Positions 1 to 4,040 of a stretch of DNA of 4,379 bases are shown piece after piece. The notes beneath the pieces were generated by a model. That model did not search any database and was not told where the DNA came from. It saw nothing but the letters and a program-made list of their open reading frames with translations. The stretch lies in the IMG/VR virus record IMGVR_UViG_648276671_000010, positions 1 to 4,379 of that record; one strand, given 5' to 3'. Made by a program: the position numbers and the translations under genes. Each line of letters starts with the position of its first letter. The first letter of the stretch is position 1. This DNA comes from a virus (Duplodnaviria; Heunggongvirae; Uroviricota; Caudoviricetes).

Positions 1-221
1 CATTTATCGGGTGTCCATAGCGAAGTTCATAGCCAGCCGGTAGCTGGACTTCCCTTGCCTCCAGTTCTGCAATGCGCTTGTCTTTGGCTTCCAGTTCATC
101 AAGAACCGTTTTTTATGGCTGGTGAATGTGTCGCATAACTCGCAGCCGGACCGGCAAGCATTATCCTGAGCTGCGTTTTCGCTTTTTCCGTGTTCATTTG
201 GTTCATTACCTTATTTAGTGG

Positions 222-629
222 CTATATTCCCCAATAGAACGTTAGTATACGCTGCATAACTTCGCTTTCCCGGCACTCGCTACAGATTATGTTCTGACGC
301 CTGTCATAACGACGTATTTCTCCGTCTGGTAATGACCAGATAAGGTCCGGATCAACCACAGATGTTTTTTTCTTCAGCTTTGCCCTTGAGAGTTTTTTGC
401 GGGCATTTTGCCAGTCCTTACGAGCCTGTTCTGACGGGAATAACCCGTAGCCAGAATTGTATACATCGCCACTGGCAACCAGCTCTCTGGCGAGAACACT
501 CATCAGATATCTTGTTGCCCCGGTTTTAGCTTCCAGTTGTCGTAACGTCTCGCGCCCACTCTGGCGTACAAGCTCAACAACCTGCCCTTTAATTTTTTCC
601 CACTCTTCTTGTGTAAAAACTTTTGCCAC
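222..629 (-). CDS. hypothetical prophage protein (135 aa), function unknown; last visible gene of the minus-strand early operon
   Basis: ORF from the six-frame track. GTG start at 629 with GGAGG Shine-Dalgarno (complement of 634-638) 4 nt upstream. Same orientation as, and 40 nt downstream of, the replication-protein gene. No family recognised by eye. Confidence 0.55.
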   Translation of the reverse strand: MAKVFTQEEWEKIKGQVVELVRQSGRETLRQLEAKTGATRYLMSVLARELVASGDVYNSGYGLFPSEQARKDWQNARKKLSRAKLKKKTSVVDPDLIWSLPDGEIRRYDRRQNIICSECRESEVMQRILTFYWGI

Positions 630-669
630 AAGTCCTCCTGAAAATTACCTCATAAGCTGAAATAAACAC

Positions 670-1740
670 TTACCCCCTGAAGCCCGGCGGAATTTCGGTA
701 TCCGGTTCAGAAATATGATTCACACAACGCTGGTTGTTCGTGCCGCTTACCGGGAGCAACCAGGGGTTTTCAAAATTCCGGTCCGGTCCAAAAAACGTCG
801 TAGCTCGCTGAACAAATTCCGTTCCCGTTTTCCCTGTAGCCGCCAGGTATCTTGCGTAACGCCTCACGCCATCCAGCATGGCCTCTGGTGGCACCCCCTC
901 GCGTAATCTGGCCTTCCAGGCACTGAAAGCGGATTTCTTCGGGTTTGCCCCGGCACGCAACGGGTACTCCCGCCAGACCTGTTCGAACACATCCGGATAA
1001 TCCACTCGTCCCACAGACTGCCCGGTGCTTTCCGGGACTACCCGATCGGCTTCCCGCTGAATGGCGGAATCGGCTTCAGGCTGTTGCAGTTGGTGTGATT
1101 GCTCCGGCCTTGCGGTCATCACCTGCTGCACAGCGCCCGAATCGGCTTTCAGCGCATACGCTGAATCGGCTTCCGGTGTCGTGCCTGCTGTCTGACCAGG
1201 ATTGACGGTCTGAACATCCCCTGCCTGGTTCGTGGCGTTTTTTACGCCATGGACCATAGTGTTTTGATCTTCTTGATCTGTATCTGTATCTGTATCTTTA
1301 TCTGTCGTGACTCGTCGTGACATGTGCGTGACATTTCGTGACGCGCCGTGACAATCGCCATTTTGTTCCCGCTTTCTTTCCCTCTCTCGCTGCGCCCTCT
1401 TGCGCTCTGCAGGAGATTTTGCGGTTTGCGAAATATTGCCGTTGTCCTCTTTAAGCACCTGGCGTTTTTCCCATCCAGTGATTAAATCACCATCAAGTAC
1501 CCGCCCCTGCATCGTCTGCAAAATTGAATCAATTACCTCTTCTGTCACGTCGAGCGCACTTGCCAAATCTTCTGTCGTGACATCAATGTGACCTCGCGTG
1601 ACATTTCGTGACGCGCTCACCAGGAGGTGGATATACACTGCCATCACTGTTGCAATTGGCTGCCCTGACACCCTGGCAATTGTTCGCCACTTAGGGTCAT
1701 TTGGGATGTCATGCCATAATCTGAGCCAGGCGTTAGCCAT
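670..1740 (-). CDS. phage replication initiator, functional analog of lambda O (YdaU-like): N-terminal region, acidic low-complexity linker (ERKRAQRERERKREQ, KDTDTDTD), C-terminal domain
   Basis: Track ORF is 670..1746 with a GTG at 1746. The in-frame ATG at 1740 has a GAGG SD (complement of 1746-1749) at 5-nt spacing that overlaps the GTG, so the start is placed at 1740 (protein MANAWLRLWHD...). Sits in the O position after the cro-like and cII-position genes and contains phased iterons in its coding sequence. YdaU-like assignment is from memory. Confidence 0.7.
   Translation of the reverse strand: MANAWLRLWHDIPNDPKWRTIARVSGQPIATVMAVYIHLLVSASRNVTRGHIDVTTEDLASALDVTEEVIDSILQTMQGRVLDGDLITGWEKRQVLKEDNGNISQTAKSPAERKRAQRERERKREQNGDCHGASRNVTHMSRRVTTDKDTDTDTDQEDQNTMVHGVKNATNQAGDVQTVNPGQTAGTTPEADSAYALKADSGAVQQVMTARPEQSHQLQQPEADSAIQREADRVVPESTGQSVGRVDYPDVFEQVWREYPLRAGANPKKSAFSAWKARLREGVPPEAMLDGVRRYARYLAATGKTGTEFVQRATTFFGPDRNFENPWLLPVSGTNNQRCVNHISEPDTEIPPGFRG
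1281..1304. repeat. hexanucleotide tandem repeat (TATCTG/TATCTT) x4 inside the replication gene; encodes the DKDTDTDTD linker on the minus strand
   Basis: Direct reading: tatctg tatctg tatctt tatctg at 1281-1304, AT-rich, next to two GATC sites (1266-1269, 1275-1278) and immediately upstream of iteron cluster 1. Confidence 0.8.
1306..1352. repeat. iteron cluster 1: five direct copies of CGTGAC phased at 10-11 bp (putative ori iterons)
   Basis: CGTGAC at 1306, 1316, 1327, 1337 and 1347 on the plus strand; spacing matches the DNA helical repeat. Lies in the linker-coding part of the O-like gene, as lambda ori does within O. Confidence 0.65.
1575..1612. repeat. iteron cluster 2: four direct copies of (C/T)GTGAC phased at 10-11 bp
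   Basis: CGTGAC at 1576, TGTGAC at 1587, CGTGAC at 1597 and 1607. The 21-bp string gcgtgacatttcgtgacgcgc occurs exactly at 1326-1346 and 1596-1616; tctgtcgtgac occurs at 1301-1311 and 1571-1581. Confidence 0.6.
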
Positions 1741-1811
1741 ACTCACCTCTTCTGATACCGAATCTTTTTACTCACGAGTTGCCGGAAGCGATTCGATATG
1801 GCTATTATCAC

Positions 1812-2237
1812 TCAATGCACTGCCACAGCATTTCCTGCCGGGCCACCACGGTTCATCTGATTGAAACCGGCGATTGCCACTGCGACAAAATCATCAGCGT
1901 CTCTCACCAGTCGTTCCCGCGTCTCCACCAGCTCCCGAAAATAGGCTGAACTGTGGCTGCGCATTCGGGCCACCAGCAGAGGTGGCATTGCTTTTTCGAT
2001 CGCTGGTAACAACGCCTGAATTTTTTTAACCGCATCAGGGGTGTCTTTCTCCACCCAGCGGAAAATTTTCTGAGTATTGCGAGCCAGGGCTTCCGGATGG
2101 CTGTCGTCATACAGTTCCGGGAACGTCATTCCCAGCTCGAAATACGCTTTGGTAATTTTCGCAGCCGGTACTTTTTCGCCGTCCGGATGTGCCCAGGCAT
2201 TCATCGCCATGCGGATGTGCTCATGCTTGATTTTCAT
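1812..2237 (-). CDS. ydaT: YdaT-like protein, occupying the cII position of the switch
   Basis: 141-aa track ORF beginning MKIKHEHI. ATG at 2235-2237 overlaps the upstream cro-like stop in an ATGA arrangement (translational coupling); GGGAG SD 7 nt upstream. Family assignment from memory of Rac YdaT; needs blastp. Confidence 0.75.
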   Translation of the reverse strand: MKIKHEHIRMAMNAWAHPDGEKVPAAKITKAYFELGMTFPELYDDSHPEALARNTQKIFRWVEKDTPDAVKKIQALLPAIEKAMPPLLVARMRSHSSAYFRELVETRERLVRDADDFVAVAIAGFNQMNRGGPAGNAVAVH

Positions 2238-2497
2238 GAATCAACTCCCGCAGCTGGTTGTGTGTTAGCCTGATAGTCAACAGGTATGCCATCGGTTGGG
2301 TTGGGGTAAGTATTGCTATCAATCTCGTGCGGGGTCACTACCCACCCTGTTGCTTCACACCAGCGTAAAATTTTTTCCCCCGTAAGTTTCGCCCGTCCAG
2401 TAATGACATGGCTTACCATCCCTTGGGTTGCCCCAACAATTTCAGCAAACTTTTTCTGGGTTATACGGGAATGATGCAAATATTCTCCAAGCTTCAT
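2234..2497 (-). CDS. Cro-like HTH DNA-binding regulator (YdaS-like)
   Basis: Track ORF 2234..2509 (MRRTMKLGEYL...). The internal ATG at 2497 has a GAGG SD (complement of 2503-2506) at 5-nt spacing, whereas the 2509 ATG has none, so the start is placed at 2497 (87 aa). HTH-like motif ITQKKFAEIVGATQGMVSHVITG. First gene transcribed divergently from the repressor. Confidence 0.75.
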   Translation of the reverse strand: MKLGEYLHHSRITQKKFAEIVGATQGMVSHVITGRAKLTGEKILRWCEATGWVVTPHEIDSNTYPNPTDGIPVDYQANTQPAAGVDS

Positions 2498-2527
2498 TGT
2501 TCGCCTCATGTTATGTGATCACGAACA

Positions 2528-2569
2528 TTAATAGCATTGTTATTTTTGAAAGTAAATAGCATCACTATT
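2528..2569 (-). promoter_or_regulatory. PR-like early promoter with two operator sites: site A 2530-2544, site B 2555-2569; -35 TTTACT (complement of 2551-2556), extended -10 TGcTATTAA (complement of 2528-2536)
   Basis: Read on the minus strand: AATAGTGATGCTATT (site B) and AATAACAATGCTATT (site A), centres 25 bp apart, are 7-1-7 inverted repeats sharing a perfect TGCTATT promoter-proximal half. A 17-bp spacer separates the -35 and -10. Predicted start near 2520, about 24 nt before the cro-like ATG. Confidence 0.6.
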
Positions 2570-2604
2570 TCAAAGAGATTAGTAATCTTATTAGAATTGA
2601 AGGT
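2568..2604 (+). promoter_or_regulatory. PRM-like repressor maintenance promoter: -10 TAGAAT 2592-2597, weak -35 near 2569-2574; transcript predicted to start at or next to the ATG (leaderless)
   Basis: TAGAAT ends 7 nt before the ATG at 2605, and no SD sits at usable spacing (AAGG is 1 nt from the ATG). The weak -35 abuts operator site B, whose centre is about -43 from the predicted start. Geometry parallels lambda PRM/OR2. Confidence 0.4.
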
Positions 2605-3104
2605 ATGAAAAGAAAACCCCTGTCAGAGATCGACCTACAAGCAGCCCAGAGACTGAAAGAAATCTGGACGACAAAAAAACTCAACTTGGGTTAACCCAAG
2701 AGCGTGCGGCAGAAATTCTGGGGTTTTCGACACAAGGGGCAGTAAGTCATTACCTAAATGGTCAGACACCTTTAAATCTAGAGGCTGTTATCAAGTTCGC
2801 TGGGTTGCTGCAAGTTCCGCCCGAGTCAATTAGACCAGATATGGCAGACTTGTTACGAATTGTAAGGATGTACCCCCAAGAACCGCAGCAGGATAATGTT
2901 GTCGCTTTACCCGCAGAGATGGAACAATCGGAAAACGAACTTCCGTTTAATATAGAACCTATAGAGCGAGATTTGATCCAGACGTTCAGGGCTTTCCCAA
3001 AAGAAGACAAAGAGAAAATGCTTAAGGAAATGAAGGAGAAAAAAGAATCAATTGAAGAAACCGTTGCGCGGTGGCTAGAGGCGCAAAAAGGTCGTCGCGC
3101 CTAA
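2605..3104 (+). pseudogene. cI-position prophage repressor (XRE/cI-type HTH, PaaR-like, no S24 peptidase domain), interrupted by a 1-nt frameshift in this sequence
   Basis: ATG at 2605 reads MKRKPLSEIDLQAAQRLKEIWTTKKLNLG then TAA at 2692-2694. The HTH continues in the -1 frame (LTQERAAEILGFSTQGAVSHYLNGQTPLNLEAVIKFAGLLQVPPESI...) to the TAA at 3102-3104. Restoring one base in GGGTTAACC gives a 166-aa protein whose N-terminus parallels lambda cI (KKxxLGLSQE). The first canonical start in the downstream frame is TTG 2805, after the HTH. Confidence 0.6.
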
Positions 3105-3121
3105 TCTGAGGAGGTTAGAAC

Positions 3122-3313
3122 ATGAGTACAGCCCTTTCCCCGATAATTTCAGAATTTGAAACAATCGAACAAGAAAACAGCTATAACGAATGGTTACGCA
3201 CCAAAGTGGCAGCAAGCCTCGCAGACCCCTGTCCTGCAATTCCACATGACGAAGTAATGGCTGAAATGGAAAACCTTATTGCTCAAATAGCTTCGACGAA
3301 CAGGAGTGAGTAA
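3122..3313 (+). CDS. type II antitoxin (63 aa), PaaA-like partner of the ParE toxin
   Basis: GAGGAGG SD at 3108-3114, 7 nt before the ATG at 3122. Its stop overlaps the toxin start (TAATG at 3311-3315). Small acidic protein; the motif SEFETIEQENSYNEWLR matches my memory of PaaA2. Starts 17 nt after the repressor stop, so it is co-operonic with the repressor. Confidence 0.75.
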   Translation: MSTALSPIISEFETIEQENSYNEWLRTKVAASLADPCPAIPHDEVMAEMENLIAQIASTNRSE

Positions 3314-3603
3314 TGCTACCCATTTTATGGCTACCTTCTGCGCGTGATGATTTGCGTGAGATTGTGACCTATATTGCCAAAGAAAGCCCTCCCGCTGCAC
3401 GTAGACTAAAAATGCGCATTGAAACATCAGTTTTGTCACTAACTGAGCACCCTTACCTGTATCCACCAAGCGAAAGAGTTCCAGGCCTTCGTGAGATAGT
3501 GACCCATCCTAACTACATAATACTTTACCGAGTAACAGCATCTAACATCGAGATCGTAAATGTAGTTCACACACGAAGGCAGTATCCAAACAAAAGCTGT
3601 TAA
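3313..3603 (+). CDS. parE: type II toxin, ParE/RelE superfamily (ParE-like, 96 aa)
   Basis: AGGAG SD at 3302-3306. Typical ParE/RelE length and motifs (N-terminal LPILWLPSARDDLREIVTYIA; C-terminal GLREIV...YRV...IEIVNVVHTRR). Translationally coupled to the upstream antitoxin. Confidence 0.85.
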   Translation: MLPILWLPSARDDLREIVTYIAKESPPAARRLKMRIETSVLSLTEHPYLYPPSERVPGLREIVTHPNYIILYRVTASNIEIVNVVHTRRQYPNKSC

Positions 3604-3617
3604 TCATTCCTGCCAAC

Positions 3618-3639
3618 AACCACCTTTGGGTGGTTTTTT
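3618..3639 (+). terminator. intrinsic (rho-independent) terminator ending the repressor-antitoxin-toxin operon
   Basis: Stem AACCACC (3618-3624) pairs with GGTGGTT (3629-3635), loop TTTG, followed by a T-run to 3639. Lies 15 nt after the toxin stop. The reverse complement has no trailing T-run, so it is unidirectional. Confidence 0.6.
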
Positions 3640-3658
3640 CTTGCTCTTCAAAAAAAAC

Positions 3659-3700
3659 AATAGCATTGCTATTTACACAACAAAATATCAATGCTATTGT
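3659..3700 (+). promoter_or_regulatory. PL-like early promoter with two operator sites: site C 3659-3673 (perfect AATAGCA-T-TGCTATT), site D 3684-3698 (AATATCA-A-TGCTATT); -35 TTTACA 3672-3677, extended -10 TGcTATTGT 3692-3700
   Basis: Same 15-bp inverted-repeat motif, same 25-bp centre spacing and same overlap with the -35/-10 as at PR. 17-bp spacer. An A-run (3650-3657) lies upstream. Predicted start near 3707. Confidence 0.6.
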
Positions 3701-3876
3701 TCATTCATCAACCCACCCCGCCCCACAGAATGCAGGGCAATACTTCGAGTTACCAGGTAGTGGTCAGGGGTTAAGTAGCCAGCCCGAGGCGTAAGAACAT
3801 GACGGCAGGGTTCAACTTTAACTATGCAGCAGGTTTTTGTTCCGCTACCCCGGCGTTAAGGGGAAATGAGGTCAGC

Positions 3877-4029
3877 ATGGATACTATCGATCTTGGCAAC
3901 AACGAGTCTCTGGTATACGACGTGTTTCCCAACCAGGACGGCACGTTCACGGCGATGACGTATACCAAAAGCAAAACATTTAAAACCGAAGCTGGCGCGC
4001 GTCGCTGGTTAGCCAGAAACACTGACTGA
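3877..4029 (+). CDS. small early-operon protein (50 aa), YdaF-like; alternative in-frame start at 3799 would give 76 aa
   Basis: Track ORF 3799..4029. The internal ATG at 3877 has a GAGG SD (3867-3870) at 6-nt spacing; the ATG at 3799 has GAGG (3786-3789) at 9-nt spacing. The shorter product matches the roughly 50-aa length I remember for the YdaF family. Start uncertain. Confidence 0.5.
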   Translation: MDTIDLGNNESLVYDVFPNQDGTFTAMTYTKSKTFKTEAGARRWLARNTD

Positions 4030-4040
4030 TGAGGTTGACG

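Follow-up and report, generated by a model that had tools for sequence, protein, structure and literature searches.

The question raised by this locus is whether two arrays of a short direct repeat, both lying inside the coding sequence of a phage replication initiator, serve as a replication origin or are a by-product of a repeated peptide, and what each array would do if they are an origin. The window (the whole stretch of 4,379 bases analysed here, with positions counted on its + strand) comes from a Rac-like lambdoid prophage, in E. coli or a close relative, and represents the immunity and early-replication region of that prophage; positions 250-4036 are 95% identical to the best E. coli match. 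The replication initiator gene (670-1746, minus strand; 358 aa from a GTG start), taken from the ORF list and its match to phrog_3729, is placed between a cII/YdaT-like gene, which is its upstream neighbour (1812-2237, minus strand), and a DUF977/Ren-like gene (222-629, minus strand). A YdaS/Cro-like gene lies at 2234-2509 on the minus strand, and the genes for a cI/PaaR2-like repressor, PaaA2, ParE2 and a DUF1391 protein are on the strand opposite to the initiator gene. The gene order in related loci is cro-cII-initiator-loader.

Phased repeats within the initiator gene

The initial annotation had reported eight CGTGAC and one TGTGAC in two clusters, and a motif search gave the same result; CGTGAC is expected about 0.97 times per strand from the base composition. 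Array 1 (the linker array, 1306-1352), which is predicted to hold the core-origin iterons, has five copies of CGTGAC at 1306, 1316, 1327, 1337 and 1347; it reads GTCACG on the gene strand and corresponds to linker residues 131-147. Array 2 (the N-domain array, 1576-1612), which is predicted to be an auxiliary initiator-binding array, has CGTGAC at 1576, 1597 and 1607 and TGTGAC at 1587, and corresponds to residues 45-57 in the N-terminal domain. At the protein level, array 2 codes for the loop that connects helix 31-47 to helix 58-65 in the winged-helix domain, and array 1 together with an adjoining AT-rich tract codes for the linker after a basic helix. Outside both arrays, the sole YGTGAC in the 4,379 bases is at 3363. 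The proposed phasing of 10-11 bp is borne out by the spacings within the arrays, which are 10, 11, 10 and 10 bp in array 1 and 11, 10 and 10 bp in array 2. Nine YGTGAC had a neighbour at 10-11 bp, compared to a maximum of two in 2,000 shuffles of the window. The motif counts and the shuffle test together rule out chance as the source of the repeats in the window. As first described, the two arrays have an exact 21-bp repeat in common (GCGTGACATTTCGTGACGCGC, at 1326 and 1596) and are separated by 270 bp from start to start; on the gene strand, array 2 is placed 229 bp upstream of array 1. A single inverted copy (GTCACG on the + strand, 1544-1549), which was missing from the initial list, lies 33 bp from array 2 on the gene strand. 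Its GTGAC core is invariant in a 7-sequence alignment. Of the E. coli-type viral loci, 79 of 79 have the copy, as do 14 of the first 17 loci of the GTCACG class that were examined.

Array 1 is directly adjoined by an easily melted AT-rich tract (1262-1305), purine-rich on the gene strand and predicted to be a DNA-unwinding element. The tract holds the AT-rich hexamer tandem repeat that had been noticed beside this cluster, (ATCTGT)5 at 1276-1305, as well as both GATC sites (1266 and 1275). The 40 bp from 1262 have the lowest stability in the initiator gene and rank third in the window, behind the operator region. Just past the tract lies an imperfect palindrome (1226-1256) with a 13-pair stem (DNA fold -10.9 kcal/mol, z = -4.95), which may belong to the origin. 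Perfect stems of at least 8 bp were found within 150 nt after the last iteron in 7 of 54 related loci and in 1 of 54 in a control region, a modest enrichment, and these stems often have the form CCCCC...GGGGG. DnaA boxes, IHF sites and oriC-type 13-mers were searched for and none was found beside the arrays, and an Rfam search of the window gave no RNA family. A promoter scan gave one weak match (1328-1355), which is made of the iterons themselves and is not meaningfully above expectation.

The pentapeptide SRNVT is found in both arrays, and this would be expected if the repeats were a by-product of a repeated peptide (ASRNVT-type segments) with no function as DNA. However, the hexamer occurs on the gene strand in all three reading frames, as GTC-ACG (Val-Thr), nnG-TCA-CGn (Ser-Arg) and nGT-CAC-Gnn (Cys/Gly-His), so that one hexamer yields the different peptides VT, SR and CH/GH, and the cores use the three frames about equally across 42 loci. 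In addition, the period of 10-11 bp is not a multiple of three, which rules out a peptide period. We also aligned the window with two E. coli variants, the Aeromonas phage pAEv1818 and the Pseudomonas phage phi1, the homologues of the two phages having an N-domain protein identity of 69%. Every core was invariant in this alignment, while the linker peptides diverge by lineage (CHGASRNVTHMSRRVTT, CHDASRNVTT and VTQCHAESRNVTL). At four-fold degenerate sites within the N-domain cores, 5 of 5 were identical in each pairwise comparison, whereas outside the cores only 12 of 35 to 20 of 42 (34-49%) were identical in cross-genus pairs, which is near saturation; the counts are small, with individual Fisher p values of 0.009 to 0.05. 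The initial annotation had itself set the test of a repeated peptide, and the origin reading comes through it, with cores in three frames and conserved synonymous sites. Taken together, these comparisons show that the repeats are under selection at the DNA level, and we give the peptide by-product a negligible probability.

The initiator and the distribution of its arrays

The initiator has a full-length match to phrog_3729, 'replication initiation protein' (E = 1.4e-254), and its E. coli relatives are annotated as 'phage replisome organizer'. The relatives start at an ATG at 1738-1740, whereas the ORF in the window starts with GTG. The coding region of its N-terminal domain (1357-1746, minus strand; aa 1-130), the predicted reader of the iterons, specifies a winged-helix fold of the DnaD N-terminal-domain type. 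The gene had been called O-like, and this description holds for its role and position; as a homologue of lambda O it was rejected, since the Pfam model Phage_rep_O gave no match even at E ≤ 10. The model Phage_rep_org_N (PF09681) aligned end to end (residues 7-125 to positions 1-119 of 121) with 14.9-15.5 bits against a cut-off of 23.3, and TIGR01714 gave 13 bits against a threshold of 49.8. A replisome-organizer N-domain model matched 6 of 36 relatives at E ≤ 0.1, with a best value of 3.3e-4. When the family profile was searched against PDB sequences, the only matches were spurious ones to the basic helix. The predicted recognition helix, TEEVIDSILQTM, is acidic, which makes it less obvious how the domain would read DNA.

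As the gene that follows the initiator, E. coli E2863 has a DnaC-like gene, ABU 83972 and FORC_044 have P, and Ralstonia phage Hennie has DnaB; in Pseudomonas phi1 it encodes a primase-helicase of 609 aa, and in the Aeromonas phage it carries the annotation 'replicative helicase'. Since the partner genes vary among relatives, the initiator is the one gene that always accompanies the arrays. The initiators of the window and of E. coli E2863 are 98% identical. In E2863 the DnaC-like ATP-binding gene comes next; this gene and the DUF1627 gene of E2863 (compared stretch L011:2718-3464) are absent from the window. Instead, the DUF977 gene comes directly after the initiator (629-670), as it also does in strain 90-3040, and for these reasons the window holds a prophage replication module without its cognate helicase loader. 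The cI/PaaR2-like repressor gene (2606-3104) is frameshifted by a 1-bp deletion at about 2673 (GACGAC-AAAAAAAC) when compared with its intact counterpart in E. coli 90-3040, and could be a pseudogene or the result of a sequencing error. Because the loader gene is missing and the repressor is frameshifted, an origin in the window may no longer fire, and this copy of the module may be a relic. The repressor gene adjoins a PaaA2-ParE2 toxin-antitoxin pair (3122-3603). The paaR2-paaA2-parE2 system is reportedly known from cryptic prophages of O157:H7, and the pair in the window is arranged likewise.

With the N-domain as the query, 73 loci were found in one-genome-per-species contigs from gamma-, beta- and alpha-proteobacteria and some others, together with phage records and 80 near-identical viral contigs. 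Each locus was anchored on the conserved DPKW codons, and the same 5-mer, phased at 9-12 bp, was sought in the N-domain and linker regions. A shared phased 5-mer was present in both arrays in 50 of 77 homologous loci. As controls, displaced regions gave 1 of 76 and 2 of 74, and codon-shuffled sequences gave a mean of 0.25. A linker-type phased array was present in most of the 77 loci, and spacings within arrays at 42 loci were 10 bp in 175 cases, 11 bp in 36, 12 bp in three and 9 bp in one. GTCACG is dominant in one large group of loci and GAACGC (often CGAACGC) in another. Loci of Pantoea, Enterobacter, Marinobacter and Sphingomonas have GTAACG, and the motif of Ralstonia phage Hennie and a cyanophage is GCAACG. 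All motif classes retain ...ACG, and the motif class changes along with the initiator lineage. These results show, on the evidence of the surveyed loci, that the arrays co-vary and travel with the initiator domain, an association that is partly forced because the iterons lie physically within the initiator gene. Gene conversion between the arrays, which have an exact 21-bp match in the window, could contribute to the shared motif. Alignments were also inspected for residues outside the iteron-coded loop that track the iteron class, and gave no clear candidate but one insert, the nine residues GNPxxGAxS, which is found in the GTCACG and GCAACG classes and is missing in the GAACGC class.

Array 1 is conserved in the E. 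coli, Aeromonas and Pseudomonas phage homologues, and the four copies of array 2 are at identical positions in at least 20 loci of other genera. Some E. coli and E. albertii variants have 21 extra bp in array 2, which add two more cores and seven codons, and some loci have four rather than five copies; the copy number thus changes by whole iterons. Homologues below about 50% identity mostly have the linker array only, so array 2 is not universally required. The gap between the arrays ranges from 179 to 340 bp (mode 227-231 bp) without strict phasing, and an apparent excess near whole helical turns is unreliable because the loci are related. The (GATAAA/GATACA/GAAGAA)n tract immediately follows the last linker iteron in the large majority of the 50 two-array loci. 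It is 60-80% AT and 60-90% purine on the gene strand in these loci, often with a C-run after it, and its number of units varies among E. coli-type loci that are otherwise 98% identical.

Arrays were also found at other places in the protein. In Stenotrophomonas and Lysobacter loci (L155 and L159; +22 to +64 from the DPK codons), the N-domain array is in another loop, the one that joins the second and third helices; L159 has a spacing of 9 bp, which is more suggestive of a peptide repeat (VTSVTSVTNVT). A Pseudomonas locus (L122) has a further iteron-coded insertion. Evidently, the initiator accommodates arrays in its surface loops. In some relatives the N-domain is fused to an HNH nuclease (L166:3001-3546; P0043, P0061, P0075 and P0104). 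The N-domain of these fusions keeps four GTCACG cores and the inverted copy, and the next gene in L166 codes for a different protein; such a fusion might act as a nuclease directed at origins of this class.

A proposed two-part origin and its alternatives

We propose that the locus holds an iteron-type phage origin in two parts, embedded in the gene of its own initiator, and we regard this reading as likely. A cluster of short repeats beyond chance lies inside an initiator gene, an AT-rich tract that would melt readily lies next to it, and the repeats are selected as DNA and matched to the initiator lineage. The lambda-like layout first suggested for the window also extends to the relatives, with the same motif in both arrays of a genome and, in the large majority of the two-array loci, an AT tract after the linker array. 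The best reading of the two parts is that array 1 and the tract at 1262-1305 form the core origin and that array 2 is an auxiliary initiator-binding array. In this model, the N-terminal winged-helix domain would bind the directly repeated GTCACG cores, which are one helical turn apart, so that bound initiators would be aligned on one face of the DNA. The five-copy array at 1306-1352 adjoins the strand-asymmetric tract, which would melt, and the C-terminal half of the initiator would bring in the helicase loader and DnaB. Array 2 and the inverted copy would be a second binding array for the same initiator. Most likely, array 2 would raise the local initiator concentration or join a looped or wrapped complex, and it could in addition allow the initiator to restrain transcription of the initiator gene. 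Initiator binding, melting of the tract, firing of the origin and the role of array 2 are all inferred here, and the literature searched contained no description, experiment or direct binding evidence for the origin of this initiator family. Two circular 50.9-kb P. aeruginosa 'plasmids' (L167, CP137943.1, and CP124671.1) are lambdoid phage genomes; in the 8.3-kb stretch examined, no replication module was recognisable other than the initiator with a primase-helicase, a weak hint that the module may support episomal replication in nature.

The proposed origin resembles that of lambda, which lies in the middle of the initiator gene O, in the linker-coding region, with initiator-binding repeats followed by an AT-rich tract (PMC7466680). 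The origin of lambda and the one proposed here are both in the linker-coding region downstream of the pR-cro-cII genes, with repeats and then the AT tract. In Stx phages, two extra iterons add 13 aa to the initiator (PMC7466680); likewise, two extra copies add 7 aa here, so that iteron number alters protein length. However, the lambda iterons are longer inverted repeats (PMC7466680), whereas the window has a 6-bp core directly repeated at 10-11 bp and no inverted-repeat iterons. Lambda has one array, in contrast to the second array found here within the coding region of the DNA-binding domain, and the initiator in the window is not an O homologue. In phage SPP1, oriL in gene 38 has AB-box direct repeats bound by G38P and an adjacent AT-rich unwinding element, and a separate helicase loader and helicase are recruited (PMC5737612, PMC6316719). 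As in SPP1, the repeats and the AT-rich element are embedded in the organizer's own gene, and the alignment of the window protein to the Phage_rep_org_N model runs from end to end, albeit with a score below the threshold. The second binding region of SPP1, oriR, is kilobases away from oriL (PMC6316719), whereas the second array in the window is about 230 bp off in the same gene, and the repeat sequences are unrelated. The two separated arrays of one short direct repeat in the window are also like those of P4, P1 and F. In P4 (ori and crr) and in P1 and F (origin iterons and inc arrays), one initiator reads two separated arrays. One array in such replicons is by the unwinding site, and the other is an enhancer (P4 crr) or acts in copy control (P1 incA). 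The arrays of these replicons are outside the initiator gene or flank it, and the initiators are unrelated, whereas both arrays in the window code for the initiator.

The Rac prophage of E. coli K-12 is alike in gene order (racR / ydaS-ydaT-initiator-loader), and its ydaU gene has internal TGTTCAAACA repeats, after which comes an almost identical GATAAAGATACAGATAAAGAT tract that includes GATC sites. YdaU and the window initiator also have a C-terminal ...PD..IPPGFRG tail in common. However, YdaU is a DUF1376 protein with no detectable similarity in the N-terminal domain, its repeat sequence differs, and BLASTP of YdaU against the window initiator aligned only the last 19 or so residues; on these grounds, oriJ/YdaU was rejected as a homologous module. 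The comparison with oriJ suggested in the initial annotation is therefore not like for like, with YdaU in a different initiator family, and since both the N-domain and the repeats differ, the mapped oriJ is not transferable to the window. The literature found names oriJ without coordinates. Within ydaU, positions 3500-3660 of L012 have direct and inverted TGTTCAAACA repeats, the GATAAAGATACAGATAAAGAT tract and a C-run after it, and this is likely the position of oriJ. The presence of nearly the same tract in ydaU suggests that the AT tract may be a module common to different initiators.

Array 1 and the AT tract could instead be the whole origin, with array 2 as a negative control element that acts by autorepression, in which bound initiator would stop transcription through the 5′ part of its gene, or by titration or 'handcuffing', much as the second iteron arrays of plasmids P1 and F do. 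No AT-rich tract accompanies array 2, the pR-like promoter region and about 130 nt of coding sequence lie upstream of it, the distant homologues dispense with it, and the gap to array 1 varies between 179 and 340 bp without strict phasing; all of this would suit such an element. Nevertheless, its position and copy number are strongly conserved in 24 GTCACG-class loci from many genera, and other lineages have arrays inserted in different loops of the domain. These two features fit a positive architectural role equally well, so positive and negative action are not separated by them; we consider a purely negative element possible but rather unlikely. The arrays as initiator sites are a prediction, and centromere-like and operator sites can likewise have short direct repeats with helical spacing. 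The repeats might thus bind another protein, such as the YdaT/cII-like or DUF977 regulator or a partition or packaging protein, and not be replication iterons. This is highly improbable, given that the same arrays are kept beside widely differing regulators and helicase genes in Pseudomonas phi1, Ralstonia Hennie and the Aeromonas phage, that the motif class shifts with the initiator lineage, and that the adjacent AT tract and the linker position match known origins (PMC7466680, PMC5737612).

Within the two-part origin that we favour, a further and more speculative reading is that the specificity-determining loop of the initiator and one of its own two binding arrays are written in the same nucleotides. 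It draws on three observations: no part of the winged-helix domain, which is otherwise conserved, varies as much as the loop encoded by array 2 (aa 45-57); this loop changes with the iteron class; and other lineages have arrays in different surface loops of the domain (L155, L159 and L122). We think that this reading is improbable. If it were true and residues of the loop contacted the variable 5′ half of the core, changes in the site and in its reader would be coupled through the overlapping code.

Meaning for the initiator family

The initiator domain with its iterons is found in 2,256 of 5,426 complete E. coli genomes, and the domain also occurs in phages and prophages of Aeromonas, Pseudomonas, Bordetella, Ralstonia, sphingomonads and others, so the family is very widespread, and it is uncharacterised. 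An origin inside the initiator gene is a familiar design; what is new here is the second array in the coding sequence of the DNA-binding domain, which co-varies with the first. A defined origin would allow the replication of these prophages to be predicted and manipulated, and the odd protein segments SRNVT, CH and DKDTD would be explained as DNA signals that are read through. The family would also offer a clean natural case of overlapping codes for a protein and for DNA-binding sites, in several specificity classes. Coupled change of site and reader, if it takes place, would give this family a built-in route to new and mutually incompatible origin specificities.
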